Shown here: positions 2,783 through 13,089 of the stretch, piece after piece
How positions within the stretch are numbered: the first letter of the stretch is position 1
How the letters are laid out: each line of letters begins with the position of its first letter
DNA from: a virus
DNA length: 44,625 bases
Virus genome (UHGV): UHGV-0129366
Direction: 5' to 3' (one strand)
Program-made: the position numbers and the translations under genes
Notes under the pieces: model-generated
The model's input: only the letters and a program-made list of their open reading frames with translations
Databases searched by the model: none
What the model was told of the DNA's origin: nothing

Positions 2783-2876
2783 GGTCGGTGCACTTTAGGT
2801 GAATAAGTTGTATATTTAAAATCTCTTTGACTATCAATGAATTAATATAAGCAGGTCATTATTAGTCAAAATAAAA
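2783..2876. other. attL: Candidate attL (core plus P-prime arm) between torS start and int 3' end
   Basis: AT-rich 94-bp junction; segment agtcaaaataaaatcatttgtcgatttcaattttgtccc resembles the lambda P-prime arm next to int; flanking core-side sequence differs from lambda. Confidence 0.45.
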
Positions 2877-3950
2877 TCATTTGTCGATTTCAATTTTGTC
2901 CCATTCCCGTCCACGGCTATCCCTATACCGCGCAGCCATTGAATCTGATTTATGCCCGAGAAGACGTTGAGCAAACTTATCGCCAATCTGGTTCCGGTAT
3001 AGCCTTGCTGACAGGCTACGCAGTTCATGGAATGTTGGCGGGTTTCCATCAAATGAGAGTCCAGATGCATTTCTCGCCTTTGTAAAATACTTTGATACTG
3101 TTTTCGGGGAAAGCGGATCGTGATGCTTTGATGCGATTATAGTTTCACTGCTGCTGGCCTCCCTGCATTTCTGTAGTGTATCAGCCAATGAGATATTGAG
3201 CGCGTCAATCGTTAGCATTAGCGGAATGGCGAGTTTAGCCCCTGTTTTACTCTGTTCAATGTGAAGATGGTTGTCGTTTATGTCTGACCATTTCATTCTG
3301 CATAAATCGCCCACTCTCTGCCCTGTAACGACAGCCAAATCCATCGCCAGCCTTAGCCAGATAGGGAGAGGTTCGGCTGCATGGTAAATCTCGACATACT
3401 CATTAGCTGTCAGCCTTGAGCGCCTTACTTCTGACTTTGCTGTACGGGTTGCTGTTACCGGATTCGTTGCCACATGCCCCTCGGCTATTGCTTCACGAAA
3501 AACGTCAACAAGGGTTGACCTGATTAATTTTGCGGAAGCTGCTTTACCTTCTGCTACGTAGGTGTTTAGCATTGCTGCCACATCTTTCGTTGATATGTCA
3601 GTGAGCGGTTTGTCCGGCAATTTTCTTCGGATTGCCCTGATTTTGCTGGCGTAGTCGAGTAGAGTTTTCGGCCTGATCCCCCTTTCGGTGAGGATTCTTT
3701 CATATCGGTCAAGCCACACATGAAGAGTGATTGCGTCACCGCCTTTAATTCTGTCTATCAGTGATTTGCGTCCGCTGTCTGAGAGTAACTCAATATTGGC
3801 CTGTATTGCTTCAGTGATTGCTATCCTCCTGTCTCGGCCTAATCCAAACTCTTTACCCGTCCTTGGGTCCCTGTAGCAGTAATATCCATTGTTTCTTATA
3901 TAAAGGTTAGGGGGTAAATCCCGGCGCTCATGACTTCGCCTTCTTCCCAT
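2877..3950 (-). CDS. int: Tyrosine integrase, lambda/HK022 Int family
   Basis: 357 aa, N-terminus MGRRRSHERRDLPPNLYIRNNGYYCYRDPRTGKEFGLGRDRRIAITEAIQAN and C-terminus near-collinear with lambda Int; catalytic R-K-H-R-H-Y context (HELRSLSARLY, LLGHKSD). Confidence 0.95.
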   Translation of the reverse strand: MGRRRSHERRDLPPNLYIRNNGYYCYRDPRTGKEFGLGRDRRIAITEAIQANIELLSDSGRKSLIDRIKGGDAITLHVWLDRYERILTERGIRPKTLLDYASKIRAIRRKLPDKPLTDISTKDVAAMLNTYVAEGKAASAKLIRSTLVDVFREAIAEGHVATNPVTATRTAKSEVRRSRLTANEYVEIYHAAEPLPIWLRLAMDLAVVTGQRVGDLCRMKWSDINDNHLHIEQSKTGAKLAIPLMLTIDALNISLADTLQKCREASSSETIIASKHHDPLSPKTVSKYFTKARNASGLSFDGNPPTFHELRSLSARLYRNQIGDKFAQRLLGHKSDSMAARYRDSRGREWDKIEIDK

Positions 3951-4146
3951 TTCTGATCCTCTTCAAAAGGCTACCTGTTACTGGTCGATTTAAGTCAACC
4001 TTTACCGCTGATTCGTGGAACAAATACTCTCTTCCATCCTTAACCGGAGGAGGGAATATCCTGCACTCGCGTACCCATCGACGAACTGTTTCAAGGCTTC
4101 TTGGACGTCGCTGGCGTGCGTTCCACTCCTGGAGTGTCAAGTACAT
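3928..4146 (-). CDS. xis: Excisionase Xis
   Basis: 72 aa, MYLTLQEWNARQRRPRSLETVRRWVRECRIFPPPVKDGREYLF..., one substitution from lambda Xis as recalled; overlaps int start as in lambda. Confidence 0.93.
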   Translation of the reverse strand: MYLTLQEWNARQRRPRSLETVRRWVRECRIFPPPVKDGREYLFHESAVKVDLNRPVTGSLLKRIRNGKKAKS

Positions 4147-4173
4147 CGCAAAGTCTCCGCAATTACACGCAAG

Positions 4174-4193
4174 AAAAAACCGCCATCAGGCGG
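4174..4193 (-). terminator. Putative rho-independent terminator upstream of xis
   Basis: Minus-strand hairpin ccgcc/tgat/ggcgg followed by a T-run (plus-strand A-run 4174-4179). Confidence 0.4.
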
Positions 4194-4353
4194 CTTGGTG
4201 TTCTTTCAGTTCTTCAATTCGAATATTGGTTACGTCTGCATGTGCTATCTGCGCCCACAGCATCCAGTGGTCATAGCAGTCATTGATGTTCTCTGCTTCG
4301 ATAACTCTGTTGAATGGTTCTCCATTCCATTCACCTGTGACTCGGAAGTGCAT
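4186..4353 (-). CDS. Small hypothetical protein (55 aa)
   Basis: ORF MHFRVTGEWNGEPFNRV... with GGAG Shine-Dalgarno 8 nt upstream; below the ORF-track cutoff; ends in the terminator hairpin. Confidence 0.3.
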   Translation of the reverse strand: MHFRVTGEWNGEPFNRVIEAENINDCYDHWMLWAQIAHADVTNIRIEELKEHQAA

Positions 4354-4425
4354 TTATCATCTCCATAAAACAAAACTCGCCGTAGCGAGTTCAGATAAAA
4401 GAAATCCCCGCGAGTGCGAGGATTG

Positions 4426-4710
4426 TTATTCATTGCCGATATTCACCTTTATCGCGAATACCTTTACCGGTTTATCGCCGAAGTGCGGATGTGTGATTGT
4501 CTTGATTTCATACCCTTCATACGGGACGTCTATTCTGCGACTGGAGTCGTCGCGCTTCGGATATCCCTTTGTGATAATCAGGCGGTCATATTCCCGGAAC
4601 ATAATTCGCTTATTCCAGTAGTCATTACACAGGCGATACTCTTCCGTTTTCTCTCCGCGAATCATGGCATCGAAGTATTCACCTTTGACGGCAAGTTGAA
4701 GGTTAGCCAC
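4426..4710 (-). CDS. ASCH/DUF3850-like (PUA-fold) protein
   Basis: 94 aa; motif KGEYFDAMIRGEKTEEYRLCNDY...REYDRLII matches the remembered DUF3850/ASCH pattern. Confidence 0.45.
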   Translation of the reverse strand: MANLQLAVKGEYFDAMIRGEKTEEYRLCNDYWNKRIMFREYDRLIITKGYPKRDDSSRRIDVPYEGYEIKTITHPHFGDKPVKVFAIKVNIGNE

Positions 4711-5326
4711 GGTTAACCTCCTGCGGCGGTTCTGGTAGCGGCATCCAGAACAAGGCGTTCCCTAACCACGATAAAGTGCCGTCGCTCAACTCCACGTATT
4801 CCCCTTGCACCTGTCCTGCCATATACTCACCGTGCTTTGAATAAATTAAAATCCAATCATCTTGAGCGGGCATTCGCTCACTACAGCTTATCCAACCACC
4901 CGGAGTTACCGGAGAGTTGCCGCGTTCTTTAATGTGCAAGCGAGGCTCACCATCTTTTGGTTCAGGCCACTGACGCTCCATGTTGATCTTCAATTTATCT
5001 TCCATAGCAGCGGTAATTTCAGCATCGCTGATGCCAGCACGGCGTTGTGCATCCCACAACAGAAACTGCATATCAGCCCACTCGCTAAGATCGTCTGGTT
5101 CGGCTGCGGCTTCCAGTGCCTCTTTTGAGAGGTGTTTCAGTGGACCAATGGGGCCAACGCAGCCAAATGTGGAGTCAGACCATTTGGCATGCTCGTGGCG
5201 AATCTGTTCGCGTTCCAGTGATGCCAGTGCAATTCGTGCCAGTTCCATTTGTTCGCCACGGGTAAGCCCGTTTTCAAGCGGGTATTTAATGAACAATTCA
5301 ATACGTTCTTTAGTAATAGTGGTCAT
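4703..5326 (-). CDS. MazG-like dNTP pyrophosphohydrolase N-domain with DUF551-like C-terminus
   Basis: 207 aa; acidic EexxE...EWAD motif block (LSKEALEAAAEPDDLSEWADMQFLL) typical of MazG-type NTP-PPases; Trp-rich C-terminal region. Confidence 0.45.
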   Translation of the reverse strand: MTTITKERIELFIKYPLENGLTRGEQMELARIALASLEREQIRHEHAKWSDSTFGCVGPIGPLKHLSKEALEAAAEPDDLSEWADMQFLLWDAQRRAGISDAEITAAMEDKLKINMERQWPEPKDGEPRLHIKERGNSPVTPGGWISCSERMPAQDDWILIYSKHGEYMAGQVQGEYVELSDGTLSWLGNALFWMPLPEPPQEVNRG

Positions 5327-5336
5327 TTGTTAGTCC

Positions 5337-6092
5337 TTAAACTGCTAGTTGCAATTGCATTTCAAAGCGGTCGCGTTGTTCACAATACGCAAGAGAACCA
5401 GGGCTATTGTGTGCCTCAATCCGTTCTACCATTAATGCTGCGCGTGTCTCTTTACTTGCAGGTGCATAAGCCCCAGACCAGGCTTTATCAATACCGATGT
5501 TTCGAGCGACGTTCGTACTATCTGCGCTGGCTAAGGGTAATTTTGTGAATATCAGCGGATTTAACATGCGCAATCCATGTAGTTTCGTAACCGGCTGACC
5601 ATGCCCATCAACAATGTGACGAATCAGGTCTTTCATTCTGGCTACCGCAAGAGTTGGGCGCTTTACGTCATAGTCGCCACAACTACCGATAGCCACTCGC
5701 GGAAACTCATTGCACAAATGAATAAATCGCTCGTCACTTTCATTCATGTGCCACACTGGAACGCCAGCTAGTTTTCCGTGAGGCCACTCATTCAGAAGCG
5801 CATCATTTTCCTCCTCTCCGCCATCAATAATATCCGGGATAATGGCAAAATCGAATCCTGGGTGATTCTTCCAGCGAGCAACAAACTCGTAGTAATCGCT
5901 CCAGTCGATTTTGTTTTTGCCAGCTGCTTTCCAGGCGGTGAATGCACCGTTGTCCAGCGCGAACGACTGACAGTATTCAGCCGCGAGATTGATCTGGCCT
6001 GAATGCGCAAAACTGATAAACGCATGTCGCCCTTTCCATGCTCTCATTGCGCACGTATCAGGAGTAATAGGCCCACCGTGGTAGTGAATCAT
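5337..6092 (-). CDS. tRNA-guanine transglycosylase-fold protein, DpdA-like candidate DNA transglycosylase
   Basis: Collinear motif matches to bacterial Tgt: LDNGAF vs LTDSGGFQ, AIIPDII vs MIFDEC, ADSTNVARNIG vs FDCVMPTRNARNG; no C-terminal zinc-binding CxCxxC...H region; start set at ATG 6092 with AAGGAG SD. Confidence 0.5.
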   Translation of the reverse strand: MIHYHGGPITPDTCAMRAWKGRHAFISFAHSGQINLAAEYCQSFALDNGAFTAWKAAGKNKIDWSDYYEFVARWKNHPGFDFAIIPDIIDGGEEENDALLNEWPHGKLAGVPVWHMNESDERFIHLCNEFPRVAIGSCGDYDVKRPTLAVARMKDLIRHIVDGHGQPVTKLHGLRMLNPLIFTKLPLASADSTNVARNIGIDKAWSGAYAPASKETRAALMVERIEAHNSPGSLAYCEQRDRFEMQLQLAV

Positions 6093-6093
6093 C

Positions 6094-6738
6094 TCACTCT
6101 CCTTTGATGCGAATGCCAGCGGCGCGGGAATCATTCCATCGCTTTACTTCTTCACGAATTACGTCAATGCATTCTTTCGAATCCATTAGGTAATCTTCAT
6201 CAAAAAGCCTTTCCTGTTCGTTTTCTATCGCAACAATGATTGCTTCAACTAACTTTTGTGCCTGAGAACCACTTTCTAACTCTGCAATGCGCTTCTCTGC
6301 GGCCTCTGCCCTGCATTGTTCCCGTTGGAACATTTTGTGGGTGCGGTCGAGCGCCTCAAGTCTGGCTGCTGATGTTTTCTCTTCTGCTTCAAGCTCAACG
6401 CGCAGCTTCCCTACCGTTAGCGCAATATCCTCGTTCTCCTTGTCGCGGGATTTTATGTATTGCTGGTTTCTTTCCCGTTCATCCAGTAGTGCCAGCGCAA
6501 CATTTGGATTAAAGGCAGCAATAAATTCAGCGTTTGCGTAAGCCTGAGCATCTGTTTCAACCAGGCAGTTAACATGACATTCTGCAATCACGCCACCGGG
6601 TTCTCCTTTCCATTTTTGACAAACAAAAACTCCTGTTAAATTGCCGTGCTGGTTAACAGATGTATGCCCTACGATGTAGCTTCCTTTAGTTGCTTTCTCT
6701 GCCTTTTCACGCAGTGCCTGATAGTTAATCTCGCTCAC
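6094..6738 (-). CDS. Ead/Ea22-like early protein
   Basis: 214 aa; N-terminus [19 protein letters not shown]...AEFIAAFNPNVALALLDERE typical of the Ea22-like family, followed by coiled-coil. Confidence 0.55.
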   Translation of the reverse strand: MSEINYQALREKAEKATKGSYIVGHTSVNQHGNLTGVFVCQKWKGEPGGVIAECHVNCLVETDAQAYANAEFIAAFNPNVALALLDERERNQQYIKSRDKENEDIALTVGKLRVELEAEEKTSAARLEALDRTHKMFQREQCRAEAAEKRIAELESGSQAQKLVEAIIVAIENEQERLFDEDYLMDSKECIDVIREEVKRWNDSRAAGIRIKGE

Positions 6739-6980
6739 TCTTCATCCTCCAAGTCGGCAACGGCGTCCATCACATCAGAACCGCGAATAACCTCAAAAGC
6801 ACGGCAGGCCATTTGAAATACCAGTTGCTCTTGCGGGTGAGGAGACTCCCAATATTTGAAGCCTGGGCGATGCGTGTACCCCATCATTGAATAAAAATCA
6901 CCAGCAAGCTTAATCGCGGCATCGACAAGCTCTCTGTTAGTCATTCTTTTTCCGCTCACTGGTTGCCTCCTTTGCGCCAC
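6735..6980 (-). CDS. Hypothetical early protein
   Basis: 81-aa ORF in the early-left operon, ATGA-coupled to the downstream gene. Confidence 0.4.
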
Positions 6981-7156
6981 ATCGCATTCAGATATTTGTT
7001 TTGATTCACTGACGGAAAAGAATTTCTCTTAAGCAATTCCTCTCTCGATGGCATTGGCTTTACGCGTTGGCGAATAATCATTTCTGCCGGAAGAATGCCG
7101 GGATTGTATGCAAGTCCTCTCATGGTAAATTCCTCAGTCATTACTGATAGCGCCAT
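6956..7156 (-). CDS. Hypothetical early protein
   Basis: 66-aa ORF in operon context; no recognisable motif. Confidence 0.3.
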
Positions 7157-9379: not shown

Positions 9380-10003
9380 TTATGCGACCTCGGAAGGAAG
9401 TCCAATCATCTTATTCAAATCTTCTACCCGTAAAGCAGGAAGTGCTGTACTTGCTTTATCTGCTTCTTTTGGTAGCAACTCTTTGCTTTCAGGCCAAACT
9501 TCAATAAGTCGCTTAACTGTTGTGACTGAGTTCAAAGCAGCCCATACATTTGATTCGATATCCTTTTTCTTGGCTTCAAGTTTTTGTTGCAATGCGCAGA
9601 TTTCATCAAACCTTTTTGTTATTTCGTGTTCTGCGCTAAACATGCATTTATCTTTGGTCGGAGTAGGGAGCAATATATCTTCGCCGTTGCCGTCTTTCCC
9701 ATATGAATACCAGCCAACCCTTCTGCCAGATACAGTCAGATAAATTGAAGTTGAACGGGCATCGCATGAGTAAAATGAACATCCCAGCTTTTCAAGTTCT
9801 TCGCTTATAGCCATTAACTTGGATGATAACTGATCCACTTCCTCAGTTTTCTTTTTACCGCCAAACGCAACAACTCTGGCGTCAAGTGCAAGCTGGTTCT
9901 TTAACTTTGTTACTTCTTCAAGCTCAGTGAAAACCCCAGATTTAATTAAAGCGTTACGAGCGATTTTCTCTTTCATTCTCGTAGTTAAGCGGATTGATGA
10001 CAT
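9380..10003 (-). CDS. Hypothetical early protein (about 207 aa)
   Basis: Start moved to internal ATG 10003 (MSSIRLTT...) preceded by GAGG; lies between N and cIII where lambda carries ral/ea10. Confidence 0.45.
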   Translation of the reverse strand: MSSIRLTTRMKEKIARNALIKSGVFTELEEVTKLKNQLALDARVVAFGGKKKTEEVDQLSSKLMAISEELEKLGCSFYSCDARSTSIYLTVSGRRVGWYSYGKDGNGEDILLPTPTKDKCMFSAEHEITKRFDEICALQQKLEAKKKDIESNVWAALNSVTTVKRLIEVWPESKELLPKEADKASTALPALRVEDLNKMIGLPSEVA

Positions 10004-10064: not shown

Positions 10065-10337
10065 TCATCTTGCTGTCAGTTGTTTGGATTTCCGGTAGCC
10101 TGCCGCGTAAAGAGCTACATTTGGAAGACAAGTTGAGCCTTCATATTTTCTGGTCAACGTTGTCAGTGTTATTACTTCTGCTCTCATTGCTGGTTTGCGC
10201 TTGCATTGCAAGACCACTCGAGAGGGGGTTGGTCTGTGTAGCTTGTCGGAGCTAATCGCCTCCTGACTTTGCAGGTTTGCGCGACGAGCTCTACGACGAG
10301 AAGCTGAGGTGCCTTTAAATTCTGTTTTTCTGGACAT
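10065..10337 (-). CDS. N: Antiterminator N, P22 gene-24-like
   Basis: Arg-rich motif TSASRRRARRA near N-terminus; C-terminus LPNVALYAAGYRKSKQLTAR resembles P22 gp24; strong GGGAGGA SD; first gene after pL/nutL. Confidence 0.8.
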   Translation of the reverse strand: MSRKTEFKGTSASRRRARRANLQSQEAISSDKLHRPTPSRVVLQCKRKPAMRAEVITLTTLTRKYEGSTCLPNVALYAAGYRKSKQLTAR

Positions 10338-10781: not shown

Positions 10782-11711
10782 CTAATCGATTGATTTAATA
10801 TCCCATTGAGGTCGAGAAACCAGAGTGTATCTGGGCTTGCCCTTACCAACAGTTTTTTTCAGGAACGTGGCTGTTGCAACGCTTCCTAAGTGCTTGTTTA
10901 TAATATCTGGGTCATCTACAGCTTTGTCAATGCTAGCGGTTCTGATATCAGTGTTACCTAAAACTATAAATTCACATTGGCGCTTGTTAGGAAGAGTTCC
11001 CAAAAATATAACGTTCTCAATAATTTTTTCCTGCTGAATGTTATCATTGCTGAGATGTTGATATACAGCTTCAAGCTGTTTTGGCTCTCTAAAAACGATG
11101 CTAAAACCTTGGCTTTTAAGTGTAAAAACTGTTTTATTTTCATGCAGATAATGAATGAATGCTCTGATTTTATCTAAGGCCCGAGAGTCTAAGTTTTCTA
11201 TAGCATCAGACAATTCTTCATCATCATTATCCAAGCTTGCCTGAAATATTTTTCTGGCCTTATTAATAGCTTTTGCTACTGGGGTTTCTTCATCGAATTC
11301 AAGAGGAGCATCAGGTCTAAACTCTTCAAGTACGAATCCGAAAGAACCACGGGCTGACGCGGTAATCATGAGATGATTATTTTCTATGTTTGGTATCTTG
11401 CCTGATGCAGGAAGTGGGCCATTGAAAGAGGTTGCCAAGTAAGCTATTGCATCATTAAAACAAGATATAGCTTTTGTTCCAAATACTGCTGAAATGCCAT
11501 GCGTGCCAACTACTGTTGGGCCTCTAAAAGTTAACACAGCATGCGTAGGTTCATGTTCTCGAACGTCAGCTTGTGAAATTAATCGCTCAACTTTCTCCAG
11601 ACGGTCTTCTAAGCTTTTTCGGCTAATAGAATGACTTGTTGGCATATTTTTTAATAGATTACTTATTTGCTCGCGCTCACTGAGAGCGAAAACATAATCA
11701 TTACGATTCAT
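10782..11711 (-). CDS. Uncharacterised protein, second gene of the rexAB-slot operon (309 aa)
   Basis: Long ORF, start overlaps the upstream gene stop by 4 bp (ATGA); no family recognised; contains an R-x6-H stretch (RAFIHYLH) of unknown significance. Confidence 0.6.
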   Translation of the reverse strand: MNRNDYVFALSEREQISNLLKNMPTSHSISRKSLEDRLEKVERLISQADVREHEPTHAVLTFRGPTVVGTHGISAVFGTKAISCFNDAIAYLATSFNGPLPASGKIPNIENNHLMITASARGSFGFVLEEFRPDAPLEFDEETPVAKAINKARKIFQASLDNDDEELSDAIENLDSRALDKIRAFIHYLHENKTVFTLKSQGFSIVFREPKQLEAVYQHLSNDNIQQEKIIENVIFLGTLPNKRQCEFIVLGNTDIRTASIDKAVDDPDIINKHLGSVATATFLKKTVGKGKPRYTLVSRPQWDIKSID

Positions 11712-12286
11712 TGTTTGACCCCCTCAGTAGTAGCCGAATTAAGTATAGTCATTGCCACAACATCAAGTTGTGGGTTTAACGGGATTTGGATAAATCCCTT
11801 CCACGACAGATCGCGTCTATGTGCCCACATACTGTACCAATATACAGTCATTTCAACAAGCTCATGACTTGGTAGATTAAGTTCTTGGAAGTAGGAATCT
11901 ACGAAAAACTCCTTCTTAACAAAATCATGATCAAATAGCTCTGGCTTTCTACCGATTACGATTGCATCATTATCGCCATTACTGAATTGAAAAAAGGTCA
12001 CAACATCGACATCATTCGGTGGCCTTTTTTCAATAAGTTCAATATGTTCTGTGAAGCTTCCATCTACCCACTGAAAACCTTCAACTAGCCCTGCTTGAGT
12101 GAGTGAAACACGAAAGTTAAGAAAACCCTTAAGGATTTTAATCCTTGCAGGGCTAAGCGAAAAAGTACTAACAAAGCGTACTATATCCATTTTGTATGGG
12201 GAACGAGTATGGCTTGTAGGATCAGCCTCGTCTATTGGGGGGATTAACCCCATCTCATTCCATAGAGAGACAGTTGGTATACTCAA
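11708..12286 (-). CDS. Uncharacterised protein, first gene of the rexAB-slot operon (192 aa)
   Basis: Begins 86 bp downstream of cI on the same strand; segment VDGSFTEHIELIEKRPPNDVDVV loosely resembles a GS...DxD nucleotidyltransferase-fold signature. Confidence 0.6.
   Translation of the reverse strand: MSIPTVSLWNEMGLIPPIDEADPTSHTRSPYKMDIVRFVSTFSLSPARIKILKGFLNFRVSLTQAGLVEGFQWVDGSFTEHIELIEKRPPNDVDVVTFFQFSNGDNDAIVIGRKPELFDHDFVKKEFFVDSYFQELNLPSHELVEMTVYWYSMWAHRRDLSWKGFIQIPLNPQLDVVAMTILNSATTEGVKQ

Positions 12287-12372: not shown

Positions 12373-13089
<717 letters not shown>

Follow-up and report, generated by a model that had tools for sequence, protein, structure and literature searches.

Two genes downstream of a DpdA-like gene in the early-left operon of a lambdoid E. 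coli prophage and their relation to DpdA

Published DpdA enzymes carry out base exchange in DNA after replication, and expression of DpdA alone in E. coli is enough for preQ0 to be inserted (PMC6884629, PMC10516641). In the "DpdA-only" phages of Hutinet et al. 2019 the modification is absent, or present at trace or very low levels, in the members that have been tested (PMC6884629). Acinetobacter phage SH-Ab 15497 encodes a DUF550 protein, described as a MazZ-like (MazG-type) enzyme, that turns dGTP and dATP into monophosphates (PMC12884076, PMC8342488). The exo-xis region of lambdoid phages is driven by pL, dispensable and mosaic, DUF551 is known as a portable domain, and exo-xis genes are reported to influence the physiology of the host and the choice between lysis and lysogeny (PMC10834534). 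The window discussed here, the whole stretch of 44,625 nucleotides (nt) of the virus genome UHGV-0129366, is a lambdoid E. coli prophage at torS, and its bases 2800-7000 are 100% identical to the prophage beside torS in E. coli O7:K1 CE10 and in two further strains. On the minus strand of the window a gene for a DpdA-like (TGT-fold) protein of 251 amino acids (aa) at 5337-6092 is followed by two genes. One, at 4703-5326 with an ATG start, encodes an EaA-type modular protein of 207 aa with a DUF550 and a DUF551 domain, and the other, at 4426-4710 with a GTG start, encodes a stand-alone 94-aa ASCH-like protein. Both are located in the exo-xis region of the pL early-left operon.

It had been proposed from the DNA sequence (the original prediction) that these two genes and the DpdA-like gene form a joint nucleotide- or DNA-modification module. 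The 207-aa and ASCH genes are very probably independently shuffled accessory genes and not conserved functional partners of DpdA, and they would have come to lie beside DpdA through mosaic recombination, at conserved joints found inside the genes as well as between them. Both proteins are already correctly named in RefSeq and the gene order is already present in the published genome of Salmonella phage BTP1. The main useful outcome is a negative one, and little changes for the known annotation.

Co-occurrence with DpdA and recombination joints

The association was followed at two evolutionary distances. At the species level one genome was taken per species, giving 80 loci with a DpdA-like homologue (47-90% identity) that range from Enterobacterales to Burkholderiales and Acidobacteriota, and all open reading frames (ORFs) within 5 kb were searched by iterative local hidden Markov model (HMM) searches. 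DUF550 was found in three of the 80 loci and was adjacent to DpdA in none, DUF551 was found in three and the ASCH family in none, as detected with ASCH and DUF550 HMMs that were built from close relatives and that very divergent ASCH or MazG-like neighbours could escape. This concern is countered by a family-blind clustering of the neighbouring ORFs of the same loci, because no family conserved beside DpdA was found. The commonest real neighbour family is a cluster of integrase-like ORFs, taken as the translated ORFs read, which is present at 10 of the 80 loci.

For closer relatives, 80 loci with near-identical copies of the gene in question were collected from IMG/VR for each of the three anchors. 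DpdA is accompanied by DUF550 at 26 loci, by ASCH at 9 and by both at 2, both of them BTP1-type. Around ASCH, DpdA was found at 5 loci by HMM and at 6 by tblastn, and DUF550 at 2; around DUF550, DpdA was found at 13 loci and ASCH at 11. No locus of these last two sets carries all three genes, and the overlap of the reciprocal anchored sets is 2.5-33%. The additional tblastn match in the ASCH-anchored set, locus L140, is a 67% allele of DpdA. The complete E. coli genomes (5,426) give the same picture on a larger scale. The DpdA allele is present in 204 of them, the DUF550 segment in 512 (9%) and the ASCH gene in 1,609 (30%), and the block of all three in about 7. Phages HK106, SfI and Eeyore have DpdA-like genes and neither DUF550 nor ASCH. 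Each of the three genes is far more often found without the other two. The presence of three DpdA alleles near ASCH was considered as a sign of association and rejected, since ASCH accompanies 11% of the DpdA-anchored loci and 14% of the DUF550-anchored loci. ASCH is indifferent to DpdA.

The original prediction had itself named a lack of co-occurrence with DpdA-like genes as the result that would speak against a module, and outside the E. coli/Salmonella lineage co-occurrence is lacking. With DUF550 never adjacent and the ASCH family absent at the species level, and with anchored sets that re-assort freely, the proposal of a joint module is not supported.

The slot after DpdA is occupied by a large variety of proteins. 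Among 84 loci there are 65 distinct proteins with many domain combinations, and only a part of these proteins give a Pfam match to DUF550 and/or DUF551. When full-length relatives of the 207-aa protein are aligned, the DUF550-DUF551 core is nearly invariant but is preceded by at least five unrelated N-termini, which are always joined to it at ...IALASLE. The same alignment contains a 55-aa insert with the linker PV[TI]PDG repeated at its two ends, and the linker N[SY]PV[TI]PDGW stands before at least three different downstream modules. The 207-aa protein of the window has the same construction. Its N-terminal module (aa 1-33; 5228-5326, minus strand), which assorts separately in the DpdA-anchored loci, ends in ...ARIALASLE and is followed by the DUF550 domain (4907-5227), the linker GNSPVTPGGW and the DUF551 domain (4721-4897). 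The 33-aa module follows DpdA in 40 of the 80 DpdA-anchored loci, with or without DUF550 next to it. It travels with DpdA regardless of DUF550, which means that recombination has made use of a joint situated between the two. EaA-type proteins look like a combinatorial family in which domains are shuffled at linker sequences. The alternative C-terminal modules seen in loci L003-L082 and L244-L245 and in the window gene include DUF551, a VMVPKxxT... module and a zinc-finger-like CxxC...CxxCxGxG module. In Salmonella phage SPN3UB (locus L245, 4001-5789) a DpdA-like gene stands with a 340-aa Eaa-type gene that has neither DUF550 nor DUF551, and the pair is located in the nin region after the replication genes. 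From this location it follows that the junction of DpdA and the Eaa N-terminus has moved between operons as a unit.

The modular construction also bears on how the 207-aa gene is annotated. In CE10, RefSeq's Prokaryotic Genome Annotation Pipeline (PGAP) gives the first 42 codons as a separate "incomplete" pseudogene (NC_017646.1 1091007-1091132, window 5201-5326) and begins a 174-aa coding sequence at internal codon 34 of the 207-aa ORF. It could be argued from this split, and from the separate assortment of the first 33 aa, that the 207-aa ORF is not a real product and is a recombination scar in which a pseudogene fragment is fused in frame to a 174-aa DUF550 protein with an internal start. 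The ORF is, however, uninterrupted, and its ATG, with AAGGA upstream, lies 10 nt past the DpdA stop codon. Very many protein clusters from E. coli, Salmonella and Shigella, which carry the name DUF550 domain-containing protein, have the full-length architecture of 205-207 aa, and all N-terminal variants are joined in frame at one residue, which argues for modular proteins rather than decay. A scar is very improbable, and the split is probably an annotation artefact of the swappable N-terminal module.

The DUF550-DUF551 protein and the ASCH-like protein

The 207-aa protein matches PF04447 (formerly DUF550, now dATP/dGTP pyrophosphohydrolase) with 142.3 bits against a gathering cut-off of 23 bits (E 6e-42), and aa 42-137 cover profile positions 1-96 of 97. 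PF04448 (DUF551) is matched with 42.8 bits (cut-off 22, E 1e-10) over aa 144-202. PF04447 is precomputed for all 120 listed homologues, and the DUF550-DUF551 architecture is present in more than 100 clusters of 202-215 aa. The profile searches that the original prediction had proposed thus confirm, with both matches above the gathering scores, its reading of a MazG-type domain with a DUF551-like C-terminus. The Pfam name of PF04447 appears to derive from the SH-Ab 15497 protein; the papers on that protein report its activity and do not discuss the Pfam name.

The only solved sequence relative of the DUF550 domain is MazZ (7ODY), to which the similarity is weak (E 0.59). In both the pairwise and the profile-sequence alignment Glu69, Glu72, Glu82 and Asp85 align with the MazZ metal ligands Glu35, Glu38, Glu50 and Asp53, as listed in PMC8342488, and the motif ExxE...ExxD is intact. 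Asp92 aligns with Asp60 of MazZ, which contacts the guanine N2. At the position of MazZ Glu34, where conservation among MazZ-1 homologues is not strict, the protein has Lys68. Judged by its residues, the DUF550 domain looks catalytically competent, because it keeps the metal ligands and the guanine-N2 contact. From its homology to the SH-Ab 15497 DUF550 protein and to MazZ, it is suggested that the 207-aa protein hydrolyses dGTP and/or dATP to the deoxynucleoside monophosphate and pyrophosphate early after infection or induction, which would alter the nucleotide pool.

An AlphaFold2 (AF2) model of the 207-aa protein reached a mean model confidence (pLDDT) of 54.8 and less than 50 in the DUF550 part, from a shallow alignment of sequences with 72-98% identity. 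The secondary structure predicted by this poor model for aa 23-118 consists of helices only, and a fold search with it for the MazG-like part was set aside because the model was too poor. The DUF551 part has a local pLDDT of about 60-80 and gave weak Foldseek matches to Hfq (Sm fold) and to Tudor domains (E 0.2-0.6, target template modelling score about 0.5-0.6). This is a hint, though not a reliable one, that DUF551 may be a small SH3-like beta-barrel.

The 94-aa protein is named "ASCH domain-containing protein" in RefSeq. Its match to Pfam ASCH (PF04266) is 14.2 bits, below the cut-off of 21.2, with an alignment that covers no more than the first 23 positions of the profile; sub-threshold matches to PF04266, with a best E of 0.029, were likewise obtained for 18 of 31 homologues. 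The signature GxKxxExR is present as Gly19, Lys21, Glu24 and Arg26 and is invariant in the 31 homologues. Iyer et al. are said to have given this signature in 2006 as the defining motif of ASCH. In a fold comparison the protein is a PUA-like beta-barrel whose best structural matches are solved ASCH proteins, and EVE, YTH and SRA-like domains are among its structural neighbours. Searches of the sequences of solved structures with the ASCH protein, as a single sequence and as a profile, returned chance-level matches only. The original prediction had named the protein a PUA-fold ASCH/DUF3850 domain. The ASCH and PUA-like part holds by signature and fold, and the DUF3850 part does not, as DUF3850 is not matched at E up to 1 by the protein or by any of 30 aligned homologues. 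The 94-aa protein is probably a small protein that binds or hydrolyses RNA, a nucleoside or a nucleotide.

The GTG start of the ASCH gene overlaps the stop of the upstream gene by 8 nt, and its Shine-Dalgarno sequence AGGAGG is located inside the DUF551-encoding sequence. DUF551 is upstream of ASCH in 62 of the 80 ASCH loci because the start and Shine-Dalgarno sequence of ASCH overlap the end of the DUF551-encoding gene.

Alternative explanations for the adjacency

Several observations weigh against independent shuffling. DUF550 directly follows the DpdA allele in 138 of the 204 E. coli genomes, far above its frequency in the other anchored sets. The order Ea22-DpdA-EaA(DUF550)-ASCH recurs in phage BTP1 despite divergence of the sequences (DpdA 93%, DUF550 76% and ASCH 83% identity), the DpdA and Eaa pair of SPN3UB was relocated together, and the genes of the window are tightly packed or overlapping; the possible escape of divergent neighbours from the HMMs belongs here as well. 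The adjacency, the persistence of the trio in BTP1 and the tight spacing are what a functional cassette of two or three genes would lead one to expect. In such a cassette DpdA would insert a 7-deazaguanine made from host preQ0, the DUF550 protein would lower dGTP or hydrolyse a by-product of the 7-deaza-dGTP type, and the ASCH protein would read or process the modified base. There are precedents for this. MazZ and DUF550 are MazG-like proteins that occur with PurZ in phage base-replacement clusters (PMC12884076, PMC8342488), and a MazG/dUTPase-like gene lies three genes from DpdA3 in phage phiST (PMC10516641). These two cases, the phiST gene and the MazZ/DUF550 genes of Z-genome clusters, are the best arguments for a functional link. 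PUA-like folds often read modified bases, and EVE, YTH and SRA-like domains resemble the ASCH protein. However, the adjacency is not reciprocal, as 374 of the 512 DUF550-bearing E. coli genomes are without it, and most ASCH copies are also found without DpdA. The species-level loci show no partner family conserved beside DpdA, neither an adjacent DUF550 nor an ASCH gene. ASCH is no commoner with DpdA (9 of 80) than with DUF550 (11 of 80), and DpdA is separated from the DUF550 domain by the often-used joint IALASLE. Published DpdA acts after replication, inserts preQ0 alone in E. coli and requires no dNTP (deoxynucleoside triphosphate) hydrolase (PMC6884629, PMC10516641). A cassette of this kind is improbable. 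The linkage of DpdA and DUF550 is confined to one recent lineage, that of E. coli and Salmonella, with nearly identical DNA, and it is gone at the species level. Since the copies are nearly identical DNA, shared descent of a mosaic block explains the adjacency. There is a narrower version, that within the lambdoid and P22-like lineage of E. coli and Salmonella DpdA and DUF550 are a real two-gene unit, in which the hydrolase tunes the guanine or deazaguanine pool for a modification based on host preQ0 and ASCH is an occasional third member that recognizes the modified base. It is given equally little likelihood. If it were true that DUF550 assists DpdA, this would help to explain how 7-deazaguanine modification is achieved or regulated in the DpdA-only temperate phages, which are a large group and so far unexplained.

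It has also been considered that one or both genes serve in counter-defence or host takeover and do so without any link to DpdA. The pyrophosphohydrolase could, for example, remove a nucleotide signal used in defence or change the levels of dNTPs, and a host RNA could be bound or cleaved by the ASCH protein. The genes lie in the same early operon as the host-takeover genes abc2 (anti-RecBCD), kil and cIII, and the published effects of exo-xis genes on host physiology and on the lysis-lysogeny decision (PMC10834534) are in line with such a role. DUF550 and ASCH are also very widespread in prophages independently of each other. However, PADLOC gave no match for the ASCH, DUF550-DUF551 or DpdA proteins, NCBIfam gave none for any of the five proteins searched, and nothing specific was found in the literature on the function of lambdoid DUF550, DUF551 or ASCH proteins or of the BTP1 genes. 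A takeover role is tentative and rather unlikely, though clearly ahead of a modification cassette, and it overlaps with independent shuffling of accessory genes, which leaves room for such a role. Independent shuffling, as the preferred reading, carries a wider message. In the lambdoid exo-xis region, where not only genes but also domains are reshuffled at conserved joints, physical adjacency says little about shared function.

The early-left operon and comparison with known systems

The layout of the operon was taken from the CE10 RefSeq annotation, profile scans and a promoter and terminator scan. All genes are on the minus strand, in the order cI-like repressor, pL-like promoter, N, Nmad5, cIII, kil, Sak4-like annealase, SSB, abc2, Ead/Ea22-like gene, DpdA-like gene, 207-aa gene, ASCH gene, terminator-like hairpins, orf55, xis and int. 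The cI-like S24/HTH repressor was identified by profile scan at 12373-13086. The pL-like promoter TTGACG-17-GATACT (10555-10527, minus strand) lies upstream of N and heads the operon with both genes; N itself is at 10065-10337 (minus strand; N peptide PF25694, E 1e-31). With the repressor, promoter and N placed upstream and every gene from the N region down to int on the minus strand, early expression from pL, as originally predicted, is plausible. The region singled out in that prediction, 4426-5326, holds exactly the two minus-strand ORFs, but the genes do not flank the DpdA-like gene as it was put there. Both lie downstream of it and on the same side, between it and the hairpins, and its upstream neighbour is the Ead/Ea22-like gene (6094-6738, minus strand; PF13935, E 3e-35). 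Directly after the ASCH stop codon the scan detected two tandem hairpins that resemble intrinsic terminators (4424-4373, minus strand), and the homologous segment of HK022 is annotated "tL4 terminator". A further terminator-like hairpin follows orf55 at 4177-4196 (minus strand). Transcription into xis-int past the hairpins at 4373-4424 and 4177-4196 would need antitermination.

Two other parts of the early region were noted. The gene at 9380-10003 (minus strand), between N and cIII, encodes a full-length Nmad5 protein ("nucleotide modification associated domain 5"; PF18757, E 4e-71). Nmad5 was considered as a tie of the region to a modification system and rejected, since 0 of 160 DpdA-anchored loci carry it; it is present in 3 of 80 ASCH-anchored loci. 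A cassette of two genes (10782-12286, minus strand) lies downstream of the cI-like repressor, where lambda has rexAB, and is followed by a terminator-like hairpin (10768-10747, minus strand). It encodes a 309-aa protein without a family match and a DUF6932 protein that weakly matches the PADLOC candidate-defence model PDC-M63A (E 2e-10). The cassette may be a prophage-encoded defence system.

The identity of the DpdA-like neighbour was predicted correctly. It matches phrog_887 (E 7e-103) and by tblastn is 35% identical to DpdA of phage 7-11 and 38% identical to DpdA of MED16, while Pfam (TGT) gave no match for the 251-aa protein. Its start is best placed at 6092 and not at 6134, given an AAGGAG Shine-Dalgarno sequence and homologues that start with MIHYHGGP. 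The family of the protein has more than 7,700 members, which are annotated only as "hypothetical" and make up a large DpdA-like subfamily without a name. Asp47 (in DNGAF) and Asp191 (in SADSTN) are invariant and could be the catalytic Asp pair, and no Cys/His zinc cluster was seen in the C-terminal part. The RefSeq annotation of the whole prophage contains none of the genes for preQ0/G+ synthesis (FolE, QueD, QueE, QueC or derivatives), which places it in the DpdA-only group. The exo-xis slot is shared by at least three DpdA-like alleles, of the 100%, 67% and 36% types. The second, divergent allele (about 36% identity, HK106 gp29 type) is found in the exo-xis region of HK106 without ASCH (locus L163, 3495-4295), and in four IMG/VR loci (L114, L122, L131 and L148; about 5334-6080) it lies 52 nt downstream of ASCH. 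A DpdA-like sequence 92.8% identical to the enterobacterial protein is present in GenBank OR850331.1, a 1,719-bp record of "Staphylococcus phage SA 1298 Kay", which is probably mislabelled or contaminated.

The closest described enzymes are the DUF5664-DUF550 protein of SH-Ab 15497 and MazZ of cyanophage S-2L (7ODY). These and the 207-aa protein are encoded by early phage genes, and the window protein shares with them a strong PF04447 match, the acidic ligands and the guanine-N2 Asp. Its DUF550 domain is, in contrast, fused to DUF551 and to a swappable N-terminal module instead of DUF5664, its similarity to MazZ is weak, and its activity is predicted. The prophage is, by its RefSeq annotation, without PurZ, DatZ and DpoZ, and the gene is therefore not part of a Z-genome pathway. 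The phage 7-deazaguanine systems, which combine DpdA with FolE, QueD, QueE and QueC, with or without Gat-QueC, QueF and DpdM, share with the window a DpdA homologue but not the preQ0/G+ genes, and DUF550, DUF551 and ASCH are not described components of them. With members of the ASCH superfamily (the E. coli ac4C amidohydrolase YqfB, Zymomonas ZmASCH, PH0355 and the EF protein 3IUW) the 94-aa protein shares GxKxxExR at the same positions and the PUA-like beta-barrel, but it is only 12-23% identical to solved ASCH proteins and is below the Pfam cut-off, as given above.

The closest described gene arrangement is that of BTP1 and of the P22 and lambdoid "Eaa" genes. BTP1 has the same order of an Ea22-like gene, a DpdA-like gene (annotated "queuine tRNA-ribosyltransferase"), eaA with DUF550 (gp22), ASCH (gp21), xis and int. 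Its EaA protein, however, has 321 aa, with a longer N-terminal part and another C-terminal module in place of DUF551. The exo-xis slot of lambda (ea22, orf61, orf63, orf60a and orf55) is itself without DpdA, DUF550 and ASCH, but the window genes occupy the same slot between the recombination genes and xis, which is driven by pL and mosaic in both, and the Ea22-like gene and orf55 are present in the window as well.

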